The position numbers and the translations under genes were made by a program. The notes under the pieces were generated by a model, which worked only from the letters and a program-made list of their open reading frames with translations, had not been told where the DNA came from and ran no database searches. From a virus, in the UHGV virus genome UHGV-0236300: a DNA stretch of 64,000 nucleotides; one strand, written 5' to 3'. Of this stretch, positions 4,963 through 26,133 are shown one piece after another (position 1 is the first letter of the stretch; each line of letters starts with the position of its first letter).

Positions 4963-7386
4963 ATGAGCATGTGGTCGTTCGATTTTGAGGCCTCTGGCTT
5001 GCTGGAAGACCCAGATCTTTATTATCACTGCGGTTTGTTTAAAGAGCTGAATAAGAACCGTTTTATGCTGTTCCTTCCCCTAAATGACCGCACACACTAC
5101 TCTGAAGAGGATGTGGAGAAAGCTAAGAACTTCATTCTGGCAAAGAAGACCCTTTATACAGATTTTGAGGCTCGCATAGCAGATTTTTCAGAGTTGGAAG
5201 GCTGGCTTACAGGCAATTCAGACTGGTCACCTACGGCTTTGAACTGTCATAACTGCTACAGTTACGACTTTATGCTGATGGAAAGATTATCCGGTATTCA
5301 TTTTGATATGTTCCGTGATCCTAAATGCATGGGAACTATCAACGACCACCAGGTTAATCTGTTTGATACGTTAGCGATGAGTCGAATCTTGTGGCCTGAC
5401 CGCCCTTTGCCAAAAGGTTGTCCAGACGCAGTATTCAATCCAGTTACCAAGAAAATGCAGCCTGTTGGACCTCATGGTCTTATGGCATGGGGCTATGCCC
5501 TTGGTAACCAGAAAGTTCAAATCGATGACTGGCGGGAGCTTCCGCTGTGGAAGTATGTGGATCGTGTGTTCGAGGACGTTATCATTCAGGAGTTGCTCTG
5601 GAAGGAGTTGGTAGCGGAATCAAAAGGTGTATTCTACGGCAAATCTGACATGCAGAACTTTATGTACGATCCTGCCAAAGAGAAGCCGAAAGGCTTCAAG
5701 AAGATCACCTGGAAGAACGCATTACGCCGAGGCATGTTACAGCACTTCCTGATGGAGCTGCAGGCTCGACAGGGGGTGTATTTCGACATAGATGGGGCTA
5801 TTGCTTTACGTGATCGTTGCGATGCGTGGATGAAAGAGATCGCTGATCGTGTTGAACCACAGCTTCCTTTAAAAGAGTTATCAATGTCTCAGCGGCCTAA
5901 GTTCCCTGAAAAGCCGTTTAACCAGGATGGGACAATCTCCAATAATGGTTGGAAATGGTTAAAAGACAAGCTTGGCTATCCTGTGGACATGAGTGCTTTA
6001 GAATTTAAAGCCCCTCCTAAGCGAGCATTTACCTCCACAGGGGATGTAAGTAAGATGGGGATAAAATGGTGTGAAGAGATGGGCTGTAAAGACCCCGATA
6101 AGATGGCTGATTTCTTGAGGGGGTATATCAAAGGAACTTCTACACCACACCCTTTACCTAAAGAGCTGATGGATCAGGCGATAAGTGACCTACAGCAGAA
6201 GCGAATGCCTGACTGCAAGATACCCATGAAAATCAGCAATCAGGACGACATCAAGCGATACCTGATCAGTGCTGGTTGGCTCCCAACAATGTGGAGAACT
6301 AAGGATGTAACTAAGGATAGCAAGAAGAAAGCTTTACCTGATGCAGATGTTGATGCACGAGTATATGCATATATGGACGAGCTTTTGGAGTCAGAGTATT
6401 GTGACCTAATTATCAACTTCTGGAACAAAACTGATGCTAAGTTCCAGACAACTGTACATAAGTTCAGAAGCTTCCCTAACTCTGAAAGAATTAAAAAGGA
6501 AGTGTTCGGGAAAATACGTAGAAAAGCCAGAGCGCTTATTACTTCTCCGCAACTGAAAGATACGTTTGGGCACCTGTGCCCGAATCTTGAAAAATTGAAC
6601 GGAGAGATGGCTAAAGATATCGTTTTGTGGTTATCATTGCGAAACCGTAGATCGGTCCTTGATCCAATCAAGGAAGATAAGGTTGATACTGGTCTTCTTA
6701 ATCATCCACGTTTGAAGATTGACCACAAACTTCCTGCTAAAAGTTCTGGATTAACAAACACTTCCAGACAGAAACATAGTATTTGTGCAAACATGCCTAA
6801 ACCATCTCCTAAAGTGGTTATGGGTAAAGAGATGCGTAGTCTGTGGGGTGTTCCTCCGGGATACTTTGAGATCGGTATTGACGGGTCCAACTTAGAGCAG
6901 CTCATCGGGGCCTGGGGTGCCTTTGAGTTTGACAACGGTCTGTATTATGATGTTGTAAGTAACGGGGACGCGCACCAAAACAATGCTGAGGCATATACAA
7001 AAGTAGCAGGTAGAGAGGTGTCCCGTAACGATGGTAAACCTATCACGTATGGGGTTATGTATGGGGCACAAAAAGATAAAGTTGCAGATATGCTGGATAT
7101 CTCTCCCGAACTGGGGCAGAGAGTAATCGATGCTCTCTGGGATGCCAACCCAGGTCTTAAGGGGCGCAAAGAGGATCTGGAGAAATTCTGGGAAGCAACA
7201 GGTAAGAAATTTATCTACTCTTTTGACGGGCATGCTATTTGGACACGCTCTAAACACTCTTTGCTTAATGCATATCAGCAAAATGGCGGTGCATCACTGT
7301 GTGACCTAGTTGGGATACTCATGCACCACCAGATGGTGAAGCGTGGATGGTATGATGAGGGTGTTCGTCGTATTATTTATTACCAT
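4963..7386 (+). CDS. DNA polymerase, family A, exon 1 (proofreading domain, motifs A and B)
   Basis: Exo I FDFEASG; motif B RxxxKxxxYGVMYG; QQNGGASLCD segment like T7 QSAGALICK; frame hits stop at 7390-7392 just before the expected motif C. Confidence 0.85.
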
Positions 7387-8228
7387 AAATAACATTGTGG
7401 CTTCGTGCAGTGATGCACGTCGAAAACCTCTTTAATTGACGGGAAGGCTAAGTTGACTTTTACGCCTAAACATGGTAAAAGCTCAATATGCTAATCCGCA
7501 GCGAAGACTAAAGGGGTGTAGTTAAAATGGCTAGATCAGTTGATTATCACGGATATACCGTGTTTGATGATGGAACAATACCTTTATCGAAACGTGATCA
7601 TACAACAATGTTTTGTTTTGATAATGGTAGAGGTTACCTTTGCGTAACCATGCTCATCGAGGGGAAGCAGTGCACAAAAGGTGTCCACCACTTGGTTGCT
7701 GAATGCTTTGTACCGAACCCTGATCCTGAAAAGCTCACATGGGTGAACCATAAGGATGGAAATAAGTACAACAATGCATACTGGAACTTGGAATGGACTA
7801 CCCCTGGCGGAAATATCAAACACGCCTACGATAATGAACTCAGAGTAAGGCCAGTCGGTGAGTATAATGCCAACGCTGTACTGACCGAGGATGAGGTAAC
7901 GGAGATTTGTGAACTGTTGCAGAGTGGTCTACGACAATGCGAGATTAGGGATCTTGGGTATCCTTATGAGACGGTTAGGGCCATAAAGCAAAGAAGACAG
8001 TGGAAACATATCTCTAAAAACTACACCTGGTAGTAACGTTCAGAGACTATCGAAAGCATAGCTCCAACATAGTTTGGTGTGAAGAAGCGAGTAGAGTAGG
8101 CCAGCAAGTGCGGTCGAAATGAGAGGTGCCTTGGTGACAAGGCAGTGAGATAGTCCGATCCATACAGGAAACCGTATGGCTGTGCACGTAATGGTGCGGG
8201 GTAGCTTAACGACCTACCTGAACTATTG
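7387..8228 (+). mobile_element. group I self-splicing intron with HNH endonuclease ORF, interrupting the DNA polymerase gene
   Basis: Core elements P AATTGACGGGAAGG (7434-7447), Q AATCCGCAGC (7493-7502), R GTTCAGAGACTA (8038-8049), S AGATAGTCC (8148-8156); upstream exon ends in U (7386), intron ends in G (8228); candidate P1 between exon CCAU and intron GUGG (7397-7400). Confidence 0.8.
7527..8033 (+). CDS. HNH homing endonuclease (intron-encoded)
   Basis: HNH motif HHLVAEC...NHKDGNKYNNAYWNLEW; ORF sits between intron elements Q and R. Confidence 0.8.
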   Translation: MARSVDYHGYTVFDDGTIPLSKRDHTTMFCFDNGRGYLCVTMLIEGKQCTKGVHHLVAECFVPNPDPEKLTWVNHKDGNKYNNAYWNLEWTTPGGNIKHAYDNELRVRPVGEYNANAVLTEDEVTEICELLQSGLRQCEIRDLGYPYETVRAIKQRRQWKHISKNYTW

Positions 8229-8582
8229 GATGAGTACCAACTTCAAGTGCCTGACACACCTAAGTATAAAACTGTATACACCTTCGACACAATTGAAGAG
8301 CTGGAAACATTTAAAGCCCAACAAGAGGCTAAACTTCATGTGTTCGACGGTCATAAGTACAAAAAGGCACGCAAAGATGAGGACGGAAACGAAGTGGTTG
8401 ACAAGGACGGAAATACGGTATACGATCCTATCTTGAACGATGACGGAAAGCTTGAACTTATCTGGAGCCCTGTGGGCGAAATGGTGGTGCATTGCTTCTG
8501 GCAGGCTTCTAAAATGATGGGCGTTCCGTTCCAGATCACAGGTGAATACTTGTGCGGTCGTAACTGGGGCGATTGTCACTAA
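8229..8582 (+). CDS. DNA polymerase, family A, exon 2 (motif C and C-terminus)
   Basis: Begins GAT GAG directly after intron 3' G; with exon 1 gives YYH|DEYQ (motif C HDE); ends GRNWGDCH with terminal His as in T7 gp5. Confidence 0.7.
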   Translation, partial: DEYQLQVPDTPKYKTVYTFDTIEELETFKAQQEAKLHVFDGHKYKKARKDEDGNEVVDKDGNTVYDPILNDDGKLELIWSPVGEMVVHCFWQASKMMGVPFQITGEYLCGRNWGDCH

Positions 8583-15788: not shown

Positions 15789-16034
15789 ATGAACAAAGGG
15801 TGGACATTTGTAGACGGCGTTAAAAACATGCCTCTAGGAAAGTATATTGTAGCCATGGCAGATGAGAATGGCAAGGTGGATTTCGGAGTTTGCGAGATTG
15901 TTCTTGCAGGATCTGGTGACTATGCCCACAAAACTGGGATAATTAACGGTCATTTCTACTTTGATTACAACCCTGTTGTGGCGTATATGGCTATGCCAGA
16001 GTTAGAGCTCCCAAAGGAGGGTGCAGATGTTTAA
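15789..16034 (+). CDS. hypothetical protein
   Basis: 81-aa ORF, RBS CAGGAGA. Confidence 0.5.
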   Translation: MNKGWTFVDGVKNMPLGKYIVAMADENGKVDFGVCEIVLAGSGDYAHKTGIINGHFYFDYNPVVAYMAMPELELPKEGADV

Positions 16035-16224
16035 GCTTAAATCTGCATGGAACATTGCTGTGGGTGATGAGATCCGCATCCCTGGTGGGAAGACCGTTAT
16101 GAAGATATCTCGTATTGAATACGAAGGCGACCGTGTATTCCACATCTTTGCAGAAGATGGTCGGGAAATTTATGTACAAGCGGGCTCTCACATCTATATC
16201 CGTAAGAAAGGGGATGACAAATGA
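16027..16224 (+). CDS. hypothetical protein
   Basis: ATG 16027 after AAGGAGGG. Confidence 0.45.
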   Translation: MFKLKSAWNIAVGDEIRIPGGKTVMKISRIEYEGDRVFHIFAEDGREIYVQAGSHIYIRKKGDDK

Positions 16225-16550
16225 CAGAGATCATTATTTCAACTGCAGGGTATGTATTCCTGACAATCATTGCTCTGACCATTTTGGTGGCGGTATATGG
16301 ATTTGTTATTCTACCTATTCTTGAGACAATTAGTTTGTGTCGGTGTTGGAGAAAGGCTTACGGTCCACAGCCGTGGAGGGACTGGCCCCACCTGGTTCGC
16401 ATAGCGTTCTCTTATGCTTATGATCACGCCAGCAGTGCATGCATAACCGGGTATCACGCTCACAATTGGAACTGGGAGGGGTTGGGTAGATGGAATGTTA
16501 TAAAGACCATACCTCTACGTATGCACAAGCCTAAAAACAAAGACAGTTGA
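16221..16550 (+). CDS. hypothetical membrane protein
   Basis: ATGA-coupled; N-terminal hydrophobic helix YVFLTIIALTILVAVYGFVILPIL. Confidence 0.5.
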   Translation: MTEIIISTAGYVFLTIIALTILVAVYGFVILPILETISLCRCWRKAYGPQPWRDWPHLVRIAFSYAYDHASSACITGYHAHNWNWEGLGRWNVIKTIPLRMHKPKNKDS

Positions 16551-16599
16551 TACTTGAAAATCCCTGGCACATCAAGTATAAGGAGGATTTCTAAAATGG

Positions 16600-17050
16600 A
16601 CTTCCTCCTTTTGATATTTTACCTGGCCGGATATTTTAAAATTCTTAGAAAATCAGAAAATGGATCGAAAACTAAAATGGATTTTTCAAGACAGGCGCGA
16701 TAAGATGTGCTGCTCATTCTATCGTTCGCACCGTACTTTAAGTTACTATTCCAGATTTTCCGCACATACTCTCACCCTTCTACCAGAACTTTCCCAGCTT
16801 ACCTTTGACCCTTTATAACAATAAACCCATTATTCTCAGTAGGTTTTGATACATCTCTCTCAGTACTCGATCTGTTTTTCGTTTCAAAGATTGAATTTTC
16901 TGAAAATTTTTCTCGATAAATTTCTTAGTACTCGATCTGTTTTTCGTTTTCTGAATCAGATTTTCTGGAAATCGTTCCGGAGCTCGACCTGAAATTTTTG
17001 GGGACGAAATCGATTTTTCGTTTTCGGAAATGGATTTTTAAAATTTGTAT
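16600..17050. repeat. AT-rich non-coding region with short direct repeats
   Basis: AGTACTCGATCTGTTTTTCGTTT at 16861 and 16929; AAAATGGAT repeats near 16650; TTTTTCGTTTTC motifs. Confidence 0.5.
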
Positions 17051-17157
17051 ATGGAAATACTTAAGGAGGTATTATTTTATATAGAATTGTCACGGTAGGT
17101 AATTAGCATGCTAACTAAATTTATGAAATGCGAAAAGTTCTCATTTAGAATTTTGAA

Positions 17158-17350
17158 TGATAATCATTCTCGTTTGCAGAATAACGGGCACCCCCGGTGA
17201 TTGTCTCCCGGCCCCTGTTGCCCCGGCTTGTTATTATAGTATCACACAGGACAAAGAAAGCAAGGATTTTTTGCATAAATTTTTAAATGATAATGATAAC
17301 CGTTCTCATTTTATGCAGCGCCCATCCCCGGTGGTTGTCTCCCCCGTCAC
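17158..17350. repeat. duplicated ~65-nt element (two diverged copies)
   Basis: Both copies contain AATGATAAT...TTCTC...GCAG...CCCCGGTG.TTGTCTCCC; downstream CCTGGCGGGGCC repeats at 17389 and 17449. Confidence 0.5.
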
Positions 17351-17773
17351 CGGTGCCTGCCGTCCTTTCGATAGGTATATTGTGCCACCTGGCGGGGCCG
17401 CTGTCAACACTTTTCAAAAAAATTCTAACCTGATGCGCTAACCGTTGCAACCTGGCGGGGCCAGCCTGGCAGGGCTATGCTATAGGGTAGGCAACAACTG
17501 AAGAGGAGGTACAAAAATAAAAGGTAATATGATCCCTGGAAATGTAGCGATTAATGACGCTGAGGCTATCGCCCTGGTTGAAAAGGCTATGGCGGGAGCG
17601 TTGGAACATAAAGAAGAGTACGAAAAAATGATGGTTAACCTGGCAGGGGCGGCGGCTGGAGAATTCTGCCCAAAAAATAATTCTAACTAATGGTTGACAG
17701 CTCGGATAGTTCTGTTATTCTTATCCTCGCAAGGTGAACAACACCACACTAATTAACAGAGAGGATAAAAATC

Positions 17774-17971
17774 ATGAACGCCTACGGAATTAAAGTACGT
17801 CGCAACACTCGCCAGGCCGTCACCGATCAAATGATTTGCCAGGTGGACGTAACCATCAACAACGGGCAAGGCCTTTATAAATTCCGTCGCGGTCAGAGCT
17901 ACACCCGGCAACAGCTTAATCGTTGCGCCCTGACAAAAGGCCAGATCAACCACTGGTTTAATAAAAAATAA
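17774..17971 (+). CDS. hypothetical early protein
   Basis: 65-aa ORF, RBS GAGAGGA. Confidence 0.5.
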   Translation: MNAYGIKVRRNTRQAVTDQMICQVDVTINNGQGLYKFRRGQSYTRQQLNRCALTKGQINHWFNKK

Positions 17972-17974
17972 GTA

Positions 17975-18003
17975 TTGACATACAGTCTGACACCAAATAC
18001 ACT
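17975..18003 (+). promoter_or_regulatory. sigma70-like promoter
   Basis: TTGACA, 17-nt spacer, TACACT. Confidence 0.5.
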
Positions 18004-18035
18004 AAAAGCACAAAAGACACTAAGAGGATAAAATC

Positions 18036-18434
18036 ATGAAAACCACTACCTTTAATTTTGATAATGCGGACTTTTCTTTTTCTGATGTCAAGAACTGCCG
18101 CCGTGATCGTGGATTTTACAAGGCCTATAATCTGGTGGGCCTGGACGATGACAATAATTTGCACGAAGTAGCTGAGATCCGGTATTATGCCGCCGCCAGC
18201 GGGAACACTCAATACTGCGTTTTTTGGATTCACGACAACAAGAACAATAAGTACGGTTATACTGGCGGGAAGGCGAGCGGTCACGGTTACGATAAAGCTA
18301 ATGCAGCACTTGAGAGCGCATTAAATGCTATGGGGATCACTGCCAACGGCTGGATCTATGAAGAAGAGTTTTTGTCGGCACTTGCTAACCACCTGGGCTA
18401 TAAAAAGCACATTGTAACATGCGCCCACGAATAA
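18036..18434 (+). CDS. hypothetical early protein
   Basis: 132-aa ORF, RBS TAAGAGGA. Confidence 0.55.
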   Translation: MKTTTFNFDNADFSFSDVKNCRRDRGFYKAYNLVGLDDDNNLHEVAEIRYYAAASGNTQYCVFWIHDNKNNKYGYTGGKASGHGYDKANAALESALNAMGITANGWIYEEEFLSALANHLGYKKHIVTCAHE

Positions 18435-18440
18435 AAATTG

Positions 18441-18468
18441 TTGACACGCTGCAAAATTCAAGTAAACT
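18441..18468 (+). promoter_or_regulatory. sigma70-like promoter (weak -10) with conserved 5'UTR hairpin downstream
   Basis: TTGACA then TAAACT; hairpin GGCGGGAATGTTTCCCGCC at 18479-18497. Confidence 0.4.
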
Positions 18469-18516
18469 AATCACAAAAGGCGGGAATGTTTCCCGCCAAC
18501 ACAAAGGAAAAAGATC

Positions 18517-18921
18517 ATGAATAAGAACGTACGCCGCATCATGAATGAACTGGCAAACGATGAAAAAATTATTGATATGCATTTGGTGAACATTTGCCGC
18601 CGTTGTGTAACATATAACAACCGCGCCGCAAAAGCGCGTGAGATGAACGCAAAAGGCACCTTAAAGCCCTTCCAGGTGGTGGTAAAGGCCATCAAAGATG
18701 TAACTAATACGGCAAACCAGGTACAGGGGAACACCAACGAGAGTACCGATATTGATCCGGCTTACATCATGAAACGGATCCGGACCTGCAAGAACAAAGA
18801 GCAAGTGTATAACGTCATAGACTGGTTGGATTCTATGGGCGACGTGGTGTACAATAGGTTTTCTGCAGCTATCGAGATCCAGCTTGACAGGTTGGACGGG
18901 AAAGTACTGAAAACTTATTAA
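18517..18921 (+). CDS. hypothetical early protein
   Basis: 134-aa ORF, RBS AAAGGAAA. Confidence 0.55.
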   Translation: MNKNVRRIMNELANDEKIIDMHLVNICRRCVTYNNRAAKAREMNAKGTLKPFQVVVKAIKDVTNTANQVQGNTNESTDIDPAYIMKRIRTCKNKEQVYNVIDWLDSMGDVVYNRFSAAIEIQLDRLDGKVLKTY

Positions 18922-18924
18922 GTT

Positions 18925-18970
18925 TATTTTTAGATGGCCTTGACTCCAGGGCCATCAATAAAGTAAACTA
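18925..18970. repeat. conserved stem-loop element, copy 1 (possible terminator or RNA processing site)
   Basis: TTTATTTTTAGATGGCCTTGACTCCAGGGCCATCAATAAAGTAAACT, stem GATGGCC/GGCCATC; identical copy at 19544-19589. Confidence 0.5.
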
Positions 18971-19001
18971 GTCTCAACTAAGCGAAAAAGGGGGCTTTAA
19001 G

Positions 19002-19121
19002 ATGAGCACTACACGCCAATACACAAAGGTAACTATTATCGTTTGCGTTGTCGGTTACATCCTGGCGCAAATGTTAATGAGTAGCGCCAACAGTTTTGCA
19101 AAATTTTTCTTAAATTTTTAA
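19002..19121 (+). CDS. small hydrophobic peptide (39 aa)
   Basis: RBS AAAAGGGGG; MSTTRQYTKVTIIVCVVGYILAQMLMSS... predicted transmembrane. Confidence 0.35.
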   Translation: MSTTRQYTKVTIIVCVVGYILAQMLMSSANSFAKFFLNF

Positions 19122-19122
19122 T

Positions 19123-19176
19123 TGACAAGCTAACCCAAATCAGTATACTTAAGCACGTAAACGGGAAAACTTCCCA
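19123..19176 (+). promoter_or_regulatory. sigma70-like promoter plus conserved 5'UTR element
   Basis: TTGACA ... TATACT, then CACGTAAACGGGAAAACTTCCC (identical 22-mer also at 21013-21034). Confidence 0.5.
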
Positions 19177-19200
19177 GAACACACAAAAGGAGAAAACACC

Positions 19201-19533
19201 ATGACTACTATGACCGCCGCAGAAAAAGCTATTCAGGTTGCCGCACTGAAAAAACAGATCGCAGACCTTGAGAACAAGATCGATAACTTTGAAATCGACG
19301 AGGACAAGTACGACGAAAACTATGATGAATGGTTAGACGAGGTCTACGGCGAAATCATGATCGGAAACATTTCTTTTCTTCCGTCGCGTATCCTCAAGGA
19401 GCTAGATCCTATCGCTTACCGCTGCGGATTTAGCGACTACATCGACAGCCTGGATATTGAGGACGATGAAGAGTACCAAGAATTGCAAACAGAGTTGGAA
19501 GAAGCAAAAGAAGAGCTTGCAGAACTGGAATAA
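19201..19533 (+). CDS. hypothetical highly acidic early protein
   Basis: 110-aa ORF, RBS AAAGGAGAAA; D/E-rich. Confidence 0.55.
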   Translation: MTTMTAAEKAIQVAALKKQIADLENKIDNFEIDEDKYDENYDEWLDEVYGEIMIGNISFLPSRILKELDPIAYRCGFSDYIDSLDIEDDEEYQELQTELEEAKEELAELE

Positions 19534-19543
19534 AACGAGTAAA

Positions 19544-19589
19544 TTTATTTTTAGATGGCCTTGACTCCAGGGCCATCAATAAAGTAAAC
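19544..19589. repeat. conserved stem-loop element, copy 2
   Basis: Same 46-nt sequence as 18925-18970. Confidence 0.5.
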
Positions 19590-19628
19590 TTTACACTGTT
19601 AACACTGAACTAATGAGGAGTTAAAACC

Positions 19629-19874
19629 ATGGCAGCACTAATCACCAAATATTATGCGCCTACCAACACCAAAAGCGCCCGTATCATGGTAAAAGGCTTC
19701 GGACGTAAAAAGGTCTACACCTGGGATTATGCCTTAGATATGGAAGACAACTACACCAACGCAATGACCGATTTTATTAATGATCTGAATAAACAGATCT
19801 TAACCGACTACAAAGTGACCGATATTGCCTACGTCGGGGAAGGCGGGATCTGTTTTGTGGGCATTGTGAAATAG
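19629..19874 (+). CDS. hypothetical early protein
   Basis: 81-aa ORF, RBS TGAGGAG. Confidence 0.5.
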   Translation: MAALITKYYAPTNTKSARIMVKGFGRKKVYTWDYALDMEDNYTNAMTDFINDLNKQILTDYKVTDIAYVGEGGICFVGIVK

Positions 19875-19949
19875 TTATTTTTTCGGTGGTCCTGGCTGCA
19901 GGGCCATCTATAAAGATAATTTATTAACACCATGAAAGGAGAAAGTAAC

Positions 19950-20303
19950 ATGATCAGCGGTGCAAGTTTTATCATTGGCGCTATTGCTACGGCTTTAATT
20001 GTAAACAAGATCCAGGATAAAAAGGAAAGAGGAAGCACCGCCCTTGCAGAATATCCATTTTGGGCATTCAACGATAACGAAGATTATATTATAAAGTATA
20101 AAAATAAAGAAGGTGACCAAGTAACACCGCGACCGATCCCGGCTTACAAGATGCAGGAAACACTATACCGCCTGGAGGCGGGGGGCGCAAAAATTGTGGA
20201 CTTTTGGGGATACGATCACACAGATCAGGAAGTTATAAAGCGCCGTATCCGGGCTATTCAGGCCAATATTGAAGTTAGCAAGGGGGGAATATATGAAGAT
20301 TAA
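19950..20303 (+). CDS. hypothetical membrane-anchored protein
   Basis: ATG 19950 after AAAGGAGAAAG; N-terminal hydrophobic segment. Confidence 0.5.
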   Translation: MISGASFIIGAIATALIVNKIQDKKERGSTALAEYPFWAFNDNEDYIIKYKNKEGDQVTPRPIPAYKMQETLYRLEAGGAKIVDFWGYDHTDQEVIKRRIRAIQANIEVSKGGIYED

Positions 20304-20490
20304 TTTTGAGAAGATTGTAAAGCGATCTCATGATTCCGAAGAGTTGCCGGAACGCCGCCAGCGTAACAATAAACTGAATAAGCCAAAAAGATTTGGAAAG
20401 ATCTGGCGAAATCATTATGATCGTAAATTGCCTGGCCTACTTTTGGAACGTGAACGACAGGCAGAACGATACCGCCATAAAGACAAATAA
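20293..20490 (+). CDS. hypothetical basic protein
   Basis: ATG after AAGGGGGG; K/R-rich. Confidence 0.4.
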   Translation: MKINFEKIVKRSHDSEELPERRQRNNKLNKPKRFGKIWRNHYDRKLPGLLLERERQAERYRHKDK

Positions 20491-20498
20491 CAACCAAC

Positions 20499-20527
20499 GC
20501 CCCGCCATTGTGCGGGGCTTTTTATTT
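20499..20527 (+). terminator. rho-independent terminator
   Basis: Stem CCCCGC/GCGGGG, loop CATTGT, then TTTTTATTT. Confidence 0.6.
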
Positions 20528-20670
20528 CTATTCTACGAATAGCGCCCCTGGTTGGCCCTGTAAGCGCCAAAAAGGCCCCCACCTATGCAATCGCCCCTTT
20601 AACCTGAAAACATCGCCCAGGGCCGTTTTATGGCGTTAAAAATATTATTGGCAGTGATTTTATTTAAAGC

Positions 20671-20698
20671 TTGACATCTTAAACAGGTTAGCTATACT
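20671..20698 (+). promoter_or_regulatory. sigma70-like promoter
   Basis: TTGACA, 16-nt spacer, TATACT. Confidence 0.55.
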
Positions 20699-20730
20699 AA
20701 CCACATCAAAGAGAGAAAGGAGTAAACGCC

Positions 20731-20991
20731 ATGCGTAAATTAAAAAATTTTGATAAAGTTGATGTTATCCTGAATAATTTTTACTACTGCAACAACAAGG
20801 CCATTTGGTGGCGTGATAGTTCCACCGATAAAGTCAAGGCGCGCTTTCTCCAGGGGCACTGGCAAGGCCGTCCAGTGATTAAAATCATGGGGCAATTGGT
20901 AGCGTTTAAAAATTGCCGCCGTGTTGATGACGTTGAAGAGATTTTAAACATTTTGCGCCACAATAATTTAAAAAATAGTGTTGACAAGTAA
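20731..20991 (+). CDS. hypothetical early protein
   Basis: 86-aa ORF, RBS GAAAGGAG. Confidence 0.55.
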   Translation: MRKLKNFDKVDVILNNFYYCNNKAIWWRDSSTDKVKARFLQGHWQGRPVIKIMGQLVAFKNCRRVDDVEEILNILRHNNLKNSVDK

Positions 20992-21035
20992 ATCTCGATA
21001 AGTATACTTAAACACGTAAACGGGAAAACTTCCCG
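20981..21035 (+). promoter_or_regulatory. sigma70-like promoter plus conserved 5'UTR hairpin
   Basis: TTGACA, 16-nt spacer, TATACT, then CACGTAAACGGGAAAACTTCCCG. Confidence 0.55.
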
Positions 21036-22188: not shown

Positions 22189-22608
22189 ATGAACATTAAA
22201 TCTGATAATCCGGCATATAGCTTTGATAACGCTTTTTGTCACGGTCCGGCGGCGAAAGGATTCGAAATCGATGGTAAACTAATTATTGTCAATGTTGACG
22301 GGGAAGAGGTTGCAGTATATCCGGTGGCAGACGTTAAAAGCCGTCTACAATGCCGCATAGATGTTACCGCCTATCAGCTTGATCCGGTCCGGGTAGTTGC
22401 CCTGGTCCTGGAAGAAGAAATTAAAGCAATGCACCACAGCAACAAGTTTATTGGTGACGCTCAAGATAATATGCAGGTATGCCGCTATAAAGTTAATGAA
22501 GTGCTTAAAGAGTACGGCTATAAGGATTTAATGATCAAGCGCGATGAAAAATTCCGCTACCGTAACGACCTGGCAAATCGGATTTTTGAAATATACGAAT
22601 CATTATAA
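22189..22608 (+). CDS. hypothetical early protein
   Basis: 139-aa ORF, RBS TAAGAGGT. Confidence 0.55.
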   Translation: MNIKSDNPAYSFDNAFCHGPAAKGFEIDGKLIIVNVDGEEVAVYPVADVKSRLQCRIDVTAYQLDPVRVVALVLEEEIKAMHHSNKFIGDAQDNMQVCRYKVNEVLKEYGYKDLMIKRDEKFRYRNDLANRIFEIYESL

Positions 22609-22626: not shown

Positions 22627-22652
22627 AAGGGGCTTAAAGGCCCCTTTCTTTT
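22627..22652 (+). terminator. rho-independent terminator
   Basis: Stem GGGGC/GCCCC with TAAA loop, then TTTCTTTTT. Confidence 0.6.
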
Positions 22653-23263
22653 TGTCTGCTCTTCTCCTACCATAAACGGCCCTACCTGGCAAGTGGAATA
22701 ATTGACTAGCCATCAATCCCACATACTGTACAAATATACATGGAAAATAACTATTGCATAATCTTTCATTGTGTGGTAGCAGGGCCATTTTTACCCGTTT
22801 TCTCTCCCAAAAGTGCACGTAATGCCGCTATTGCACAAATTTTAACCTGATGCACATCTCCAATATCTTGTCAACAACTAAAAATCTTTATAAGTCATAC
22901 ACTTACACAGCATCGAAAGCGTGTTCTACGCGAAAAATCGAGTATAACTATAGCCGCCAGATCTCAGAATTCACGTACGCACGCCATTCTATAGTCTGCA
23001 AAGTATTTATTCCAACCACAGAATAACGGAATAGTCAATACCTGCATAAAATAATTATTCGTGTAAACTGCATAACATAAATCAGCTCAGGTGTCAACAT
23101 TTTTCGTAAACAGTTCGAAATTGTCACGATAAGTTATTATACACAGAGAAATCTTTAGTCGTCTAATGTTTACTGTACATTACTATACTGACTGGAATCA
23201 TTAGATGACTAAGAGAAAGATAAGAAATAATTAATAATGTAATTGTTTTACCTGTAACAATAA

Positions 23264-23440
23264 GGCAACTATGCAAACGAATGGCATGGCGCGACGGAGT
23301 CGCGACATAATATAAAAGCAGTAACAATCACCCCCGTGATAGTTTTTCTGCAATCTATTATTCAGATCATAGTTGCCTTGTATTTAGTTAATCATGACAT
23401 AACAAGCAAGGCAACTATAGATCTTCTAATAGTTGCCCTG
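23264..23440. repeat. CATAGTTGCC direct and inverted repeats
   Basis: Motif at 23264 (rev), 23368 (fwd), 23410 (rev), 23429 (fwd); 23368-23420 is a 13-bp-arm imperfect palindrome. Confidence 0.5.
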
Positions 23441-23529
23441 CTTTTATATTATGTCATAGATTGTTATCTTGTTAATTGTTTTCATGCAAACGAATGTCAT
23501 GGCTTATCATCTCTGTGTAAACAATTTGG

Positions 23530-23585
23530 GCGTAAACTATTCAGATGAAAACTATTCAGGCGTAAACAGTCTATGCGTAAACAGT
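23530..23585. repeat. CGTAAAC(AG) motif cluster
   Basis: GCGTAAAC at 23530, 23560, 23575; also 23897 and 23105; the same core occurs in the early 5'UTR 22-mer. Confidence 0.5.
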
Positions 23586-23610
23586 GAGATATGGAATAGT
23601 AACAGCCGTT

Positions 23611-23682
23611 ATTGTGTCATATTGTGTCATTGTGTCAAAGGTAAAAGTGTCAAAAGTGACAATTTTGTCACATTGTGTCAGA
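23611..23682. repeat. TGTGTCA / TGACA iteron-like repeats
   Basis: ATTGTGTCAT x2, TGTGTCAAA, GTGTCAAAAGTGACAA, TTGTCACATTGTGTCAGAC. Confidence 0.5.
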
Positions 23683-24204
23683 CAAGTTTTTCTCCTCTTT
23701 GTCAAGTGCCGCATGAAAAATTTACAAACTGGTATGGTAGCATTTTTGCGGCCCTGTTTACATTCAGGAATGTATGTATAATCCTTGCTGTGTGGGCGTT
23801 TAGACGTCTGGACGGTCAGAAGTCAGCAGGTCAATATCTAATCTATTGGTTGCTAACTATATCCCACACAAATAGTAAGAAATATAATTGTTATGTGCGT
23901 AAACAGTAACTCATGTTATCAATCCCTGTATGTATCGCCAGTGGTGCGCATAATGGGTATTATGTTAAATTGCCCGTAATGATAACCATTCTCACAATGA
24001 TAGGTATTCTCATTCATCCCCACAAGATAGATTGCAAATGTTGTGCCACTGTGTGAACGGCCTCACCTATTAATTTGCCTCACTGCCTCGATATTTGAGA
24101 ATTATTATAAAAAATGAGAAGTATTCCCATTCCGTCCGCCTGGCAGCACTCCTGTAGGACAAGCACAACATCGGGGTATAACTGGACCTGTTCAGATATT
24201 TCTG

Positions 24205-24345
24205 GCTGACTCTTCAGGCCTGTGTGGGAAAAGCCAACCTCTCCGGCGGCGGGGAGGGGGGTCAATTAAAAAATTTACGTGGTGTATGAAGCGCTCTTCA
24301 GGCAAGGTGTGTATTATGGGATGAAACCCTCTTCAGGTGATGATA
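24205..24345. repeat. CTCTTCAGG repeats and G-rich repeats
   Basis: CTCTTCAGG at about 24211, 24296, 24330 (and 24739); CCGGCGGGGA(G/T)GGGG at 24244 and 24388. Confidence 0.4.
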
Positions 24346-25113
24346 TTTGTGGGGGGATATTTGCTGGAAAGCCAGATATGACGGGGCTCCCGGCGGGGAT
24401 GGGGTAGTACAGACAGGGAAAATGTGGGGATGTGGTGGGAGTAAATTGATCAAGTAGGTAGGATATGGAATATGTTACAAGTATGTTAAATATAGAGGTA
24501 GGATATTTGTGAGATTTGTGTGTAAAATCAAAGACTTAGGTGGTGTTGTGGTATTTTCTATAAATAATTCAAGTTTAATAGGTGATATTTGTCTCCATCC
24601 ACTTTGTGTGGTAAACAGCTCCTAATTGAATTGGTTTACAAGTGTATATAAAGTATACAAATTAAAGATATAAGAAACCCCCCTCCCCCTTCGGCTACCA
24701 TTCACCTTTTCCTCTGACTGGTACTTAAACACTTATTCAGACTCTTCAGGTTATCACCCCTATACTATATGGCAGTGACTGGTGTCCTCCGGCCCCTCTT
24801 TCGCCACCCGTCCGCTTCGCCATGCTAATGCCATAGCCAAAGGTTCGGTTGTTCACCCTGTTCACTCAGGTGTATCTCCATACCCCTTCAAACCGAAGAG
24901 AACAGAAAACCCGAATTACTCGGTAAAAGAAAAGAGAAGAACTTAATTTTATCAAGATAGGCAAGAATGTCAAGGGATGACTGCTCACTAAACAAGCAAA
25001 CAGTCATGTGTGGTAGGTAAGTAACTGGGTTGGTAGGAAATTTAGTTGGAAGATGTTATAGGTGCCTCCAGAACCTTAGCTGGGCAGCTAAACCTGCAAA
25101 GCAGACTTGTGTG

Positions 25114-25329
25114 TCAGTCCAAAGGTTCATCTACTACTTCACTGAAATCAATGTTCAGGGTCTCTTCCCAACCATCAATCTCAGCACCAGAGTAGAGATC
25201 TTTAGGGTCTACATCAAGGGCTTCCGCAACAGCATCTATATTTAACACTTCTGGCAGGTAAGATTCATCGAATTCAAGGTAAATCAGGCCACGAGTGTTG
25301 TCAGTCCCACCAAATATTTCTATTTTCAT
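25114..25329 (-). CDS. hypothetical acidic protein
   Basis: ATG preceded by AGAGGAG. Confidence 0.45.
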   Translation of the reverse strand: MKIEIFGGTDNTRGLIYLEFDESYLPEVLNIDAVAEALDVDPKDLYSGAEIDGWEETLNIDFSEVVDEPLD

Positions 25330-26133
25330 GAAATCTCCTCTGGAAATGAGAGTGTGAACAGGGTTTATACGTTCCAATACGCTGGAATTATGCACGTTTG
25401 CCTCTTCAGGCCATGCTTTAGCATGATAAACTTATGTGGGCTCGGTGCTTCATAGTCTCCCACCTCTGAACTCTTCGTGCTCGGGCATAATAGAGAACCA
25501 GATGGCTATGATATCTTCCCACGTTAGGTCATCAGCCTCAGGATCCACCTGGGACGGAGATAGAGAATCCTCAGAATTGAAGTTTTCCTCTATCACTCCT
25601 TCAGATGTCTCTGTAGATGCATGTGTGTTGGTCATGTTCCACCCGTGAGTATTCCGGCAACATGTTTAAAAAATAAGACTTTATCAACATATGGCCGGAA
25701 CGTGTCGATGCCATAAGCATATTCCTGCAACAGCCGCTATGGACGTAATGATCATCAGGATCACCACTAAAACCTCTGACAATGTTTTCATTGTGTATTC
25801 CATATTATCCAAACAATGTGTGGATACTATCACAGGGGCGGTAATGTGTCAACAGAAGCGCCGCGAGGGTTTGGTTAAAATCCGAGCGTATGGTGATTTG
25901 GGTCAAAACGGGCGTGCGTTCTCGCTACGCTCGAAATAGAGAGTTGTTTGTAGGATGACTTTAAACGCTCTGTAAGGAGATTAATTGTCTAAGGTATGGA
26001 ATCGTGCACCAGATAAAGAAAAGGACGCCACAGAGCGTCCTAGGTGCCTTAAATTTGATATTTTGCTATACCCATGAGGGCTTGTCTAGGTTGGAGTAAC
26101 TGAAGGGGGTCAAAAGGTGACTGTCAAAATCTT

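Follow-up and report, generated by a model that had tools for sequence, protein, structure and literature searches.

The virus genome UHGV-0236300 was analyzed over a stretch of 64,000 nucleotides, which we refer to as the window. This stretch contains a gap of about 2.5 kb, hereafter called the hub (22650-25113). The last transcription unit on the + strand terminates at 22608 and the first gene on the - strand has its end at 25114; the two units bordering the hub are therefore convergent. On the left the hub is limited by a strong intrinsic terminator on the + strand (22627-22646; an 8-bp stem followed by a T-run), which closes the early-gene unit. A terminator at the equivalent site is annotated in the database records of the phages Murica, HdK5, Alma and Gotham. 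The right border is formed by a - strand gene for a 71-aa protein of unknown function (25114-25329; phrog_12108), which is annotated in relatives and intact in 11 of the 12 Vequintavirus genomes used for comparison throughout this study. Further lineages considered were a divergent clade known from metagenomes (L014 clade), a lineage labeled L016 and phage KPP-1, a member of the genus Mydovirus in the same subfamily.

A search with 2.55 kb around the hub matched 122 phage records, nearly all of them from Escherichia phages of the genus Vequintavirus; the best match was ECP32 with 97% over the hub. Judged by this similarity, the window is from a Vequintavirus, i.e. an rV5-like myophage of E. 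coli. The phage collection contained no DNA similar to the hub outside this genus, even when a sensitive search was used, and a search of GenBank phages with the 71-aa protein, made to find hubs in other genera, returned Vequintavirus only. A metagenome scan with a conserved 18-base pattern gave 51 loci; only 11 of these were true relatives, all from two clades already known. The map of rV5 published in 2013 shows a grey 'non-coding' box without open reading frames (ORFs) between genes 163 and 164, at the point where two transcription units converge. The authors gave this box no function and ascribed the change in skew at this site to the switch in transcription direction (PMC3606486). By sequence comparison the hub is this box.

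The original prediction had stated that the region has no convincing ORF, and the relatives confirm this. The hub has 15 ORFs with a length of 40 aa or more, and stops or frameshifts interrupt 14 of them in two or more of the 12 relatives. The sole ORF that is always open (24782-24946) shows 18, 25 and 27 substitutions at codon positions 1, 2 and 3 respectively between clades, hence no third-position bias. A coding potential of the hub was rejected on these grounds. Furthermore, no tRNA or tmRNA genes were found in the window, and Rfam gave no relevant match either at the gathering score over the whole window or at E <= 5 over the hub.

The middle of the hub is occupied by a 460-bp sequence (23681-24140) with the properties of a direct terminal repeat (DTR). 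The window has only one copy because the assembly collapsed the two end copies. The database record of HdK5 begins at the nucleotide equivalent to 24140 of the window and ends at 23681; the record of bov10K2 also begins at 24140, and that of Pr121LW at 23681. The HdK5 and Gotham records have exact 459-bp repeats at both ends, which map to 23681-24140, and in the latter both copies are annotated as repeat_region. With the 460 bp as a query, 8 of 60 sampled records were found to place the repeat at record positions 1-459, and 3 further records break at one of its edges. Eleven records from several laboratories thus start or end at the same two nucleotides. The sequence of the window is 93-98% identical to the Vequintavirus repeats.

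The ends of related phages have also been mapped experimentally. PacBio reads of HdK5 and EdH4 'ended abruptly' at distinct points, with a redundancy of 458 bp (PMC6563267), and a terminal repeat of 459 bp was reported for Gotham (PMC7471380). In KPP-1 the coverage is twofold over 514 bp, and PhageTerm called the ends T7-type (PMC9862379). Twofold coverage together with pile-ups of read starts at the repeat was described for Gotham (PMC7471380), KPP-1 (PMC9862379) and HdK5/EdH4 (PMC6563267). The repeats of HdK5/EdH4 and Gotham are the same element as 23681-24140 of the window; the repeat of KPP-1 has the landmarks at its edges in common with it. The ends of the records, the exact repeats at these ends and the published end mapping therefore identify 23681-24140 as the DTR, and we have little doubt from these comparisons that the core of the hub is this repeat and the terminal region of the genome. 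The same repeat occurs at both ends and the ends are fixed, as is typical of short DTRs; for the window itself this holds through its identity to the mapped repeats. The two fixed edges and an exact repeat with a constant length of 459-460 bp are not what is found in headful (pac) packaging.

The sequence environment of the two edges is well defined. At the left edge (...TGTGTCA|GACAAG) the cut falls after the last copy of a TGTGTCA iteron. The right edge reads ...CCGTCCGCC|TGGCAGCAC in the window and ...CTGTCCGTC|TAGCACCGC in KPP-1, which is C|T(G/A)GCA in both. The landmark TTGTCAAG (23699-23706, + strand) is located 18 nt inside the left edge in the window and 17 nt inside it in KPP-1; it is followed by the conserved sequence AAATTTACAAA. 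A second landmark, GATATTTGAGAAT (24090-24110, + strand), contains a GATATTT whose first base is 51 nt from the right edge, compared with 50 nt in KPP-1. Two genera with independent end mapping thus agree in these distances to within 1 nt. The conserved + strand sequence TGGCAGCACTCCTG (24141-24154), which adjoins the right edge on its outer side, is a candidate cleavage or recognition site, and directly after it follows a hot spot of insertions and deletions (24155-24180). The sequence AGCACTCCTG is also present just outside the predicted right edge of L016 (~6700).

In the L014 clade the landmarks predict a repeat of 671 bp (6573-7243). At the position of the TGTGTCA copies L014 has a different iteron, GTATGCCT, and the last copy of this iteron ends at the predicted left cut. 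Iterons that change their sequence and yet hold their place at the cut would be expected of a recognition array that co-evolves with its binding protein. Inside its predicted repeat L014 also has a direct array of three perfect DnaA boxes (TGTGGATAA) at 6845-6884, which is found in L028 as well (1004-1043). This array is absent from the window and from KPP-1; it recalls the box set in the injection stop region of phage T5.

In the alignment of the 12 Vequintavirus genomes, variable sequence gives way to invariant sequence at a distance of no more than a few bases from either mapped edge. The DTR itself has conservation values of 0.90-0.99. The original prediction had named poor conservation in relatives as an argument against a function of the region; in the alignment the hub matches its coding flanks in conservation and exceeds them in places, with the exception of 23460-23680 (0.30-0.74) and the hot spot at 24155-24180. 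The architecture is also kept, with other iteron sequences, in the L014 clade, L016 and KPP-1. Together, these data lend strong support to one of the options that the original prediction had offered, namely that of a genome terminus or packaging site: the DTR is situated in the middle of the region and repeat arrays flank both of its edges.

The repeat families listed for this region in the original prediction were all recovered at their coordinates, far above chance when counted against shuffled sequences or the rest of the window. The hub has 447 positions in repeated 8-mers as compared to 276 +/- 47, more than any other 2.46 kb of the window. The one region that approaches it is that of the neighboring early genes; the stretch 16000-21000 is as repeat-dense because it holds duplicated promoter cassettes. 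These are two near-identical pairs with shared leaders (18940/19561 and 19122/20981), in which, for example, TTGACA-16-TATACT is followed by CACGTAAACGGGAAAACTTCCC. The same duplication bears on a further proposal, according to which the CGTAAAC downstream of the early promoters at 19156 and 21015 points to a regulator shared with the hub. This idea has little force: the two sites belong to one duplicated promoter-plus-leader cassette (CACGTAAACGGGAAAACTTCCC), they have just the 7-mer in common with the iterons of the hub, and outside the hub CGTAAAC occurs 5 times versus about 7.5 by chance (a rough estimate for 61.5 kb, both strands).

The individual families are as follows. CGTAAACAG occurs four times (23105, 23561, 23576 and 23898) with 0.39 copies expected, and the wider family GTAAACAG has 6 copies in the hub and 1 in the remaining 61.5 kb. 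Four copies of ATAGTTGCC in alternating orientation (23264-, 23369+, 23410- and 23429+) compare with an expectation of 0.47. TGTGTCA is present four times within 68 bp; the 7-mer is not enriched over the window as a whole (17 versus 11.8 expected), whereas the 9-mer ATTGTGTCA has 4 copies in this array and none elsewhere in the window. The G-rich repeats of the hub are CGGCGGGGAGGGGG and CGGCGGGGATGGGG. To these families we can add five copies of GATATTTG, which emerged when the k-mers of the hub were compared with those of the remaining window, and half-sites with the sequence TGAGAAT. Finally, CTCTTCAGG has 4 copies in the hub and one at 25402; four others in the window encode Pro-Glu-Glu. 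An interpretation of CTCTTCAGG as a phage promoter or as the loop of a hairpin was rejected because the downstream and flanking sequences are inconsistent. The fifth copy (25402-25410) precedes the start of the 71-aa gene by ~70 nt, a position which is kept in L014 (9226-9234). A single copy in inverted orientation is found in L014 at 6373, left of the repeat.

The left flank of the DTR is AT-rich with a GC content of 31-37%. It starts with a deeply conserved island (22848-22958), composed of GATGCACAT ... TGTCAACAACTAAAAATCTTTATAAG ... GTATAACTATAGCCGC. This island is one of only three segments of the hub that blastn can align with the L014 clade, and both of its long motifs are unique in the window. 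A 25-nt part of it (22868-22893) was considered as a repeated type of promoter; this was rejected since the sequence is unique in the window and the hexamer spacing of 15 nt is poor for sigma-70.

Farther to the right follows an inverted-repeat module (23255-23457), which combines a GC hairpin, a pair of 18-nt arms and the four ATAGTTGCC half-sites. The hairpin reads CGCGAC-gga-GTCGCG (23290-23304); the 18-nt arms are perfect and 116 nt apart (23304-23321 and 23438-23455). Between 23404 and 23443 the ATAGTTGCC copies form a palindrome with 15-nt arms (93%) separated by 10 nt, which also contains perfect 12-nt arms. The module is invariant in 11 of the 12 relatives and wholly deleted in the twelfth, the viable phage FV3 (L018; the equivalent of 23291-23490); it is therefore dispensable. 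The same architecture with other arm sequences is present in L014 (17-nt arms), L016 and KPP-1 (21-nt arms).

At the equivalent of 23457 five of the 12 relatives carry an insert of ~50 nt with three small hairpins (AGAAACACCCGAAGGGGTGACCAAAGGTCACCTGGCATAGCCAGCGAA), which is truncated in a sixth (L023) and absent from the window. The lineages concerned are L001, L002, L019-L021 and L023; a related copy in the divergent L028 is located in the loop of the inverted repeat. This insert may be a small mobile or an ancestral element.

The variable stretch next to the DTR harbors two arrays on the + strand. The first one is an array of GTAAAC(A/T) iterons (23516-23585) comprising TGTAAACA, GCGTAAACT and two copies of GCGTAAACAG. 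Its copy number varies among relatives, with a conservation of 0.30-0.53 and 30-48% gaps. The second one, the TGTGTCA/TGTCA iteron array (23611-23680), abuts the left edge of the DTR such that its last copy ends at the cut.

Past TGGCAGCACTCCTG and the hot spot, the right flank has a set of + strand arrays (24194-24445), namely three copies of CTCTTCAGG (24210, 24294 and 24329), G-runs at 24247-24260 and 24391-24404, and two copies of GATATTTG (24342 and 24356). The block 24321-24416 within this set can still be aligned with the L014 clade. GATATTT and the G-runs are found on the same side of the DTR in all four lineages, i.e. in the window, L014, L016 and KPP-1. A second set of + strand repeats (24497-24620) contains GATATTTG (24502 and 24584), TGTGTGGTA (24605) and GTAAACAG (24611). 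In L014 the right flank of the hub is interrupted by an ORF for an HNH endonuclease (7716-8486, ATG at 7776; Pfam HNH_3, E = 1.3e-18), which looks like a homing endonuclease within the non-coding terminal region.

Inside the DTR two adjacent palindromes with a 7-1-7 layout, TGATAACCATTCTCA and TGATAGGTATTCTCA (23980-24012), resemble the box recognized by the regulator Fur. Their half-site is TGAGAAT/ATTCTCA. A third site of this kind overlaps the landmark GATATTTGAGAAT; the resulting 3 sites in the DTR compare with 0.08 in shuffled sequences. TGAGAAT is depleted over the window (7 versus 14.5 expected), yet 3 copies are located in one 115-bp stretch inside the DTR. Similar sites occur in or near the terminal repeat of every lineage examined, including L014, L016 and KPP-1; they are found at 23980-24110 in the window, at 5671, 6450 and 6628-6634 in L016 and at 3416-4161 in L024. 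The consensus of the E. coli Fur box is GATAATGATAATCATTATC or, in the 7-1-7 form, TGATAATnATTATCA. The three sites in the DTR match it at 11-12 of 14 positions and those of the related lineages at 12-13 of 14. However, the half-site that is common to the lineages is TGAGAAT, whereas the Fur consensus is TGATAAT. The fact that all lineages have the same G for T deviation suggests that the sites are bound by a protein other than Fur.

The right part of the hub contains a sigma-70 promoter with an extended -10 element (24946-24973, - strand; TTGACA-16-TGaTAAAAT, an 11/12 match), which faces leftward toward the DTR. The hexamers are kept while the spacer differs: it has 18 nt in L015, and in the L014 clade the promoter reads TTGCAA-17-TGcTATAAT. 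A similarly placed TTGACC-17-TGcTATTCT was read directly from the sequence of KPP-1. Between the last - strand gene and the promoter lies a conserved hairpin, ATGACTG...CAGTCAT (24977-25008, - strand), which is replaced in the L014 clade by ATACCTAC..GTAGGTAT; both arms have changed together.

Downstream of the promoter follows a non-coding block of ~260 nt (24678-24940, - strand) with a conservation of 0.93-1.00 over the 12 relatives. This is the most conserved DNA of the region, nearly invariant within each clade, and its conservation drops abruptly past the G-run near 24678. The block includes a 5' hairpin (24923-24911) and a copy of CTCTTCAGG (24742). The hairpin is retained in the L014 clade through a different sequence, with a G-U pair that is valid only on the - strand. 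We found no coding signal in the block and no Rfam match at the gathering score or at E <= 5. The fold of the single sequence is unremarkable (z = -1.56). An analysis of covariation is powerless with two clades, and the 'compensatory' pairs reported by RNAalifold are located in pyrimidine/purine runs, where the alignment is uncertain. Two long-range helices that were picked by hand had a predicted probability of zero and were rejected. Because this evidence for structure is weak, we call the block a candidate transcript only: it has a promoter of its own and no coding potential, as a non-coding RNA would have, and it has neither a family match nor a structure supported by covariation. The 'regulatory hub', another option in the original prediction, is in this respect borne out in part, i.e. 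by the conserved sigma-70 promoter, the ultra-conserved block and the palindromic, operator-like sites.

The left neighbor of the hub is a gene for a 139-aa protein (22189-22608; phrog_12277), which is absent from 3 of the 12 close relatives. The protein is 89-93% identical in L014 and L016, though the surrounding DNA of these lineages no longer aligns; this pattern suggests horizontal exchange or an unusually strong constraint. A further observation concerns the database records that match the hub. Some 18 or 19 of them are named 'Campylobacter phage' and are ~85-95% identical to rV5-like phages of E. coli across the hub; two were inspected and both are UNVERIFIED. The host label of these records is probably wrong.

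We propose that the hub is in all probability the concatemer-junction region of a linear genome that ends in short DTRs. By analogy with T7, virion DNA would have 23681-24140 at both ends, while replicating concatemers would have one copy per unit. The terminase would cut at two fixed sites, the left and the right edge of the DTR, and the second copy of the repeat would be regenerated by DNA synthesis. The arrays just outside and inside the edges would most likely be the sites at which the packaging machinery recognizes and positions itself on the DNA. On the left, the lineage-specific iterons (TGTGTCA, GTAAACAG) that abut the cut could serve as specificity determinants; on the right, GATATTT, the G-runs and CTCTTCAGG, which are shared between genera, and the sequence of the right edge could be recognition elements for a conserved part of this machinery. 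From the position, enrichment and conservation of the arrays, their identity as packaging signals is plausible, although we put it forward tentatively. The promoter at 24973-24946 would transcribe through the ultra-conserved block toward the DTR, and either produce a small or medium-sized RNA or drive the polymerase into the junction. This may be analogous to the pausing of T7 polymerase, with the host polymerase in its place. The TGAGAAT palindromes in turn may bind a dimeric protein of host or phage that protects, anchors or regulates the ends. The combination of an early host-polymerase transcript through the block, acting as a new RNA or as a signal for junction maturation, with such a binding of the palindromes must be considered a rather doubtful part of the proposal.

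The T7 terminal repeat has 160 bp and is thus shorter than the 460 bp found here. Like T7 and T3, the virus studied here has a short exact repeat at both virion ends, and the ends are fixed. Non-coding DNA surrounds the repeat, and short-repeat arrays lie to its left and right, as in T7. In T7, concatemers hold one copy of the repeat and the second one is synthesized (PMC10438801); the terminal 5% of the genome was found to carry the specificity of packaging, and the RNA polymerase pauses at the concatemer junction, recruits packaging proteins and starts maturation (PMC3276506). Packaging specificity near the termini and transcription into the junction as part of maturation would be further points of likeness. 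The single collapsed copy in this and most other assemblies is compatible with one-copy concatemers, which it does not prove. There are also clear differences. The present virus is a myovirus of 135-140 kb; its junction is situated between convergent units and bordered left and right by ~1 kb of non-coding DNA; the arrays of the two flanks belong to different motif families; and the promoter that faces the repeat is of the host sigma-70 type and not a promoter for a phage RNA polymerase.

Several points weigh against the proposal of a concatemer junction with short DTRs flanked by packaging signals. The left-hand and right-hand arrays are of different sequence, whereas a single heptamer family surrounds the T7 repeat. 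The deletion in FV3 implies that not every repeat family of the hub is an essential packaging signal. The assignment for this phage rests on 93-98% identity to relatives with mapped ends. Furthermore, in two studies the genomes of Vequintavirus phages were classed with PhageTerm as circularly permuted or headful (PMC8407724; PMC13211470), which conflicts with the ends of the records and with the 458/459-bp DTRs obtained from analyses of read ends and coverage. The revised records from one of these studies (PMC8407724), including that of bov10K2, nonetheless begin at the edge of the DTR.

Other explanations were considered, two of which are compatible with a terminus. One of these is a further option of the original prediction, an origin of replication, which could be formed by the whole hub or by its AT-rich left part with the inverted repeats and iterons. 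Such an origin would use iterons bound by an initiator beside a stretch that melts easily or, as in T7, priming from a promoter. The low GC content of the left flank would suit an origin, as would the iteron arrays with nested inverted repeats, features that fit packaging signals as well; the three perfect DnaA boxes in the predicted DTR of the L014 clade point in the same direction. The cumulative GC skew turns at the hub, and the site was listed in the skew-based origin search of the rV5 authors; however, transcription changes direction at the same place, and these authors themselves ascribed the turn to this change (PMC3606486). The hub contains a single exact DnaA box, and clusters of such boxes are absent from the window. 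The viable FV3 does without the inverted repeats and ATAGTTGCC, the part of the hub that most resembles an origin. No recognizable initiator gene adjoins the hub, since Pfam and PHROGs assigned only unknown functions to the four proteins that flank it. An origin at this site is in our view unlikely. Somewhat better prospects, albeit still on the unlikely side, can be given to the view that the hub is chiefly a locus for a non-coding RNA of ~260 nt (possibly longer, with repeated CCUGAAGAG motifs) and for regulation, in which the palindromes would be operators for a repressor. The promoter hexamers conserved across a variable spacer, the unmatched conservation of 24678-24940 without a coding signature and the strand-specific 5' hairpin that is maintained by different sequences are consistent with this view. 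The CTCTTCAGG copies hold their positions between the clades, and a perfect 12-nt pair of a G-run and a C-run (24251-24262 / 24677-24688) could close a long helix. On the other hand, the energy of the fold is ordinary, the apparent compensatory pairs fall in pyrimidine/purine runs of two clades only, the hand-picked helices have no predicted probability, Rfam has no matching family, and the block has no clear terminator. A search of the available literature turned up no transcriptome of an infection with Vequintavirinae.

A different kind of control is known from T5, in which the injection stop signal is a large untranslated region with repeats, inverted repeats, palindromes and DnaA boxes near the end of the genome (bioRxiv 10.1101/866236). 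The hub resembles this region as a large untranslated stretch by the genome end, rich in repeats, palindromes and boxes, with a structure that is conserved across relatives; its repeats and boxes for host proteins could pause or anchor the incoming DNA. The DnaA boxes of the L014 clade and the significant clustering of Fur-like palindromes in the DTR of all lineages examined would be in line with such a role. However, the T5 region is situated inside a terminal repeat of ~10 kb and is defined by eight DnaA boxes (bioRxiv 10.1101/866236), while most arrays described here are outside the 460-bp repeat and DnaA boxes are found in one related clade only. The window has neither a long terminal repeat with some eight ordered DnaA boxes nor any cluster of them, and the consistent deviation of TGAGAAT from TGATAAT speaks for a protein other than Fur. 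Injection in two steps is not known to occur in such contractile-tailed phages. Altogether, a control of DNA entry seems very improbable. Even less credit can be given to the notion that the hub is decayed DNA whose repeats reflect slippage or low complexity and serve no function. Close relatives do differ freely in the copy number of the GTAAAC and TGTGTCA iterons, and FV3 dispenses with one module. The hub is nevertheless for the most part conserved as well as or better than the flanking genes in the 12 relatives, the architecture is kept over four lineages including another genus, and the motifs are specific 8-9-mers and not simple sequence. The comparison of sequences already contradicts this notion.

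A terminus with a short direct terminal repeat is a well-known kind of genome end and is already documented for this genus. The published reports (PMC6563267, PMC7471380, PMC9862379) give the length of the repeat only; neither they nor the rV5 paper (PMC3606486) connect it with the rV5 box, deal with the arrays beside it or mention that the geometry of its edges is shared by two genera. What is new here is the link to the 'non-coding' box of rV5, the geometry of the edges across genera, the map of the flanking arrays and the ultra-conserved block behind its own promoter. The finding explains a blank feature on the reference map of a group of widely used E. coli phages, which comprises rV5, the Vequintavirinae of the BASEL collection and several therapy candidates. 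It also reconciles conflicting records: the cut points of most deposited genomes are arbitrary, with the second copy of the repeat missing, and two papers describe the DNA as permuted. Exact ends and likely packaging signals are needed for rebooting or engineering these phages from synthetic DNA, for a consistent annotation and for the interpretation of coverage. Finally, the conserved edge geometry across genera, the iterons that differ between lineages at the cut site and the promoter that faces the repeat provide a testable map of cis-elements for the genome ends of these phages.

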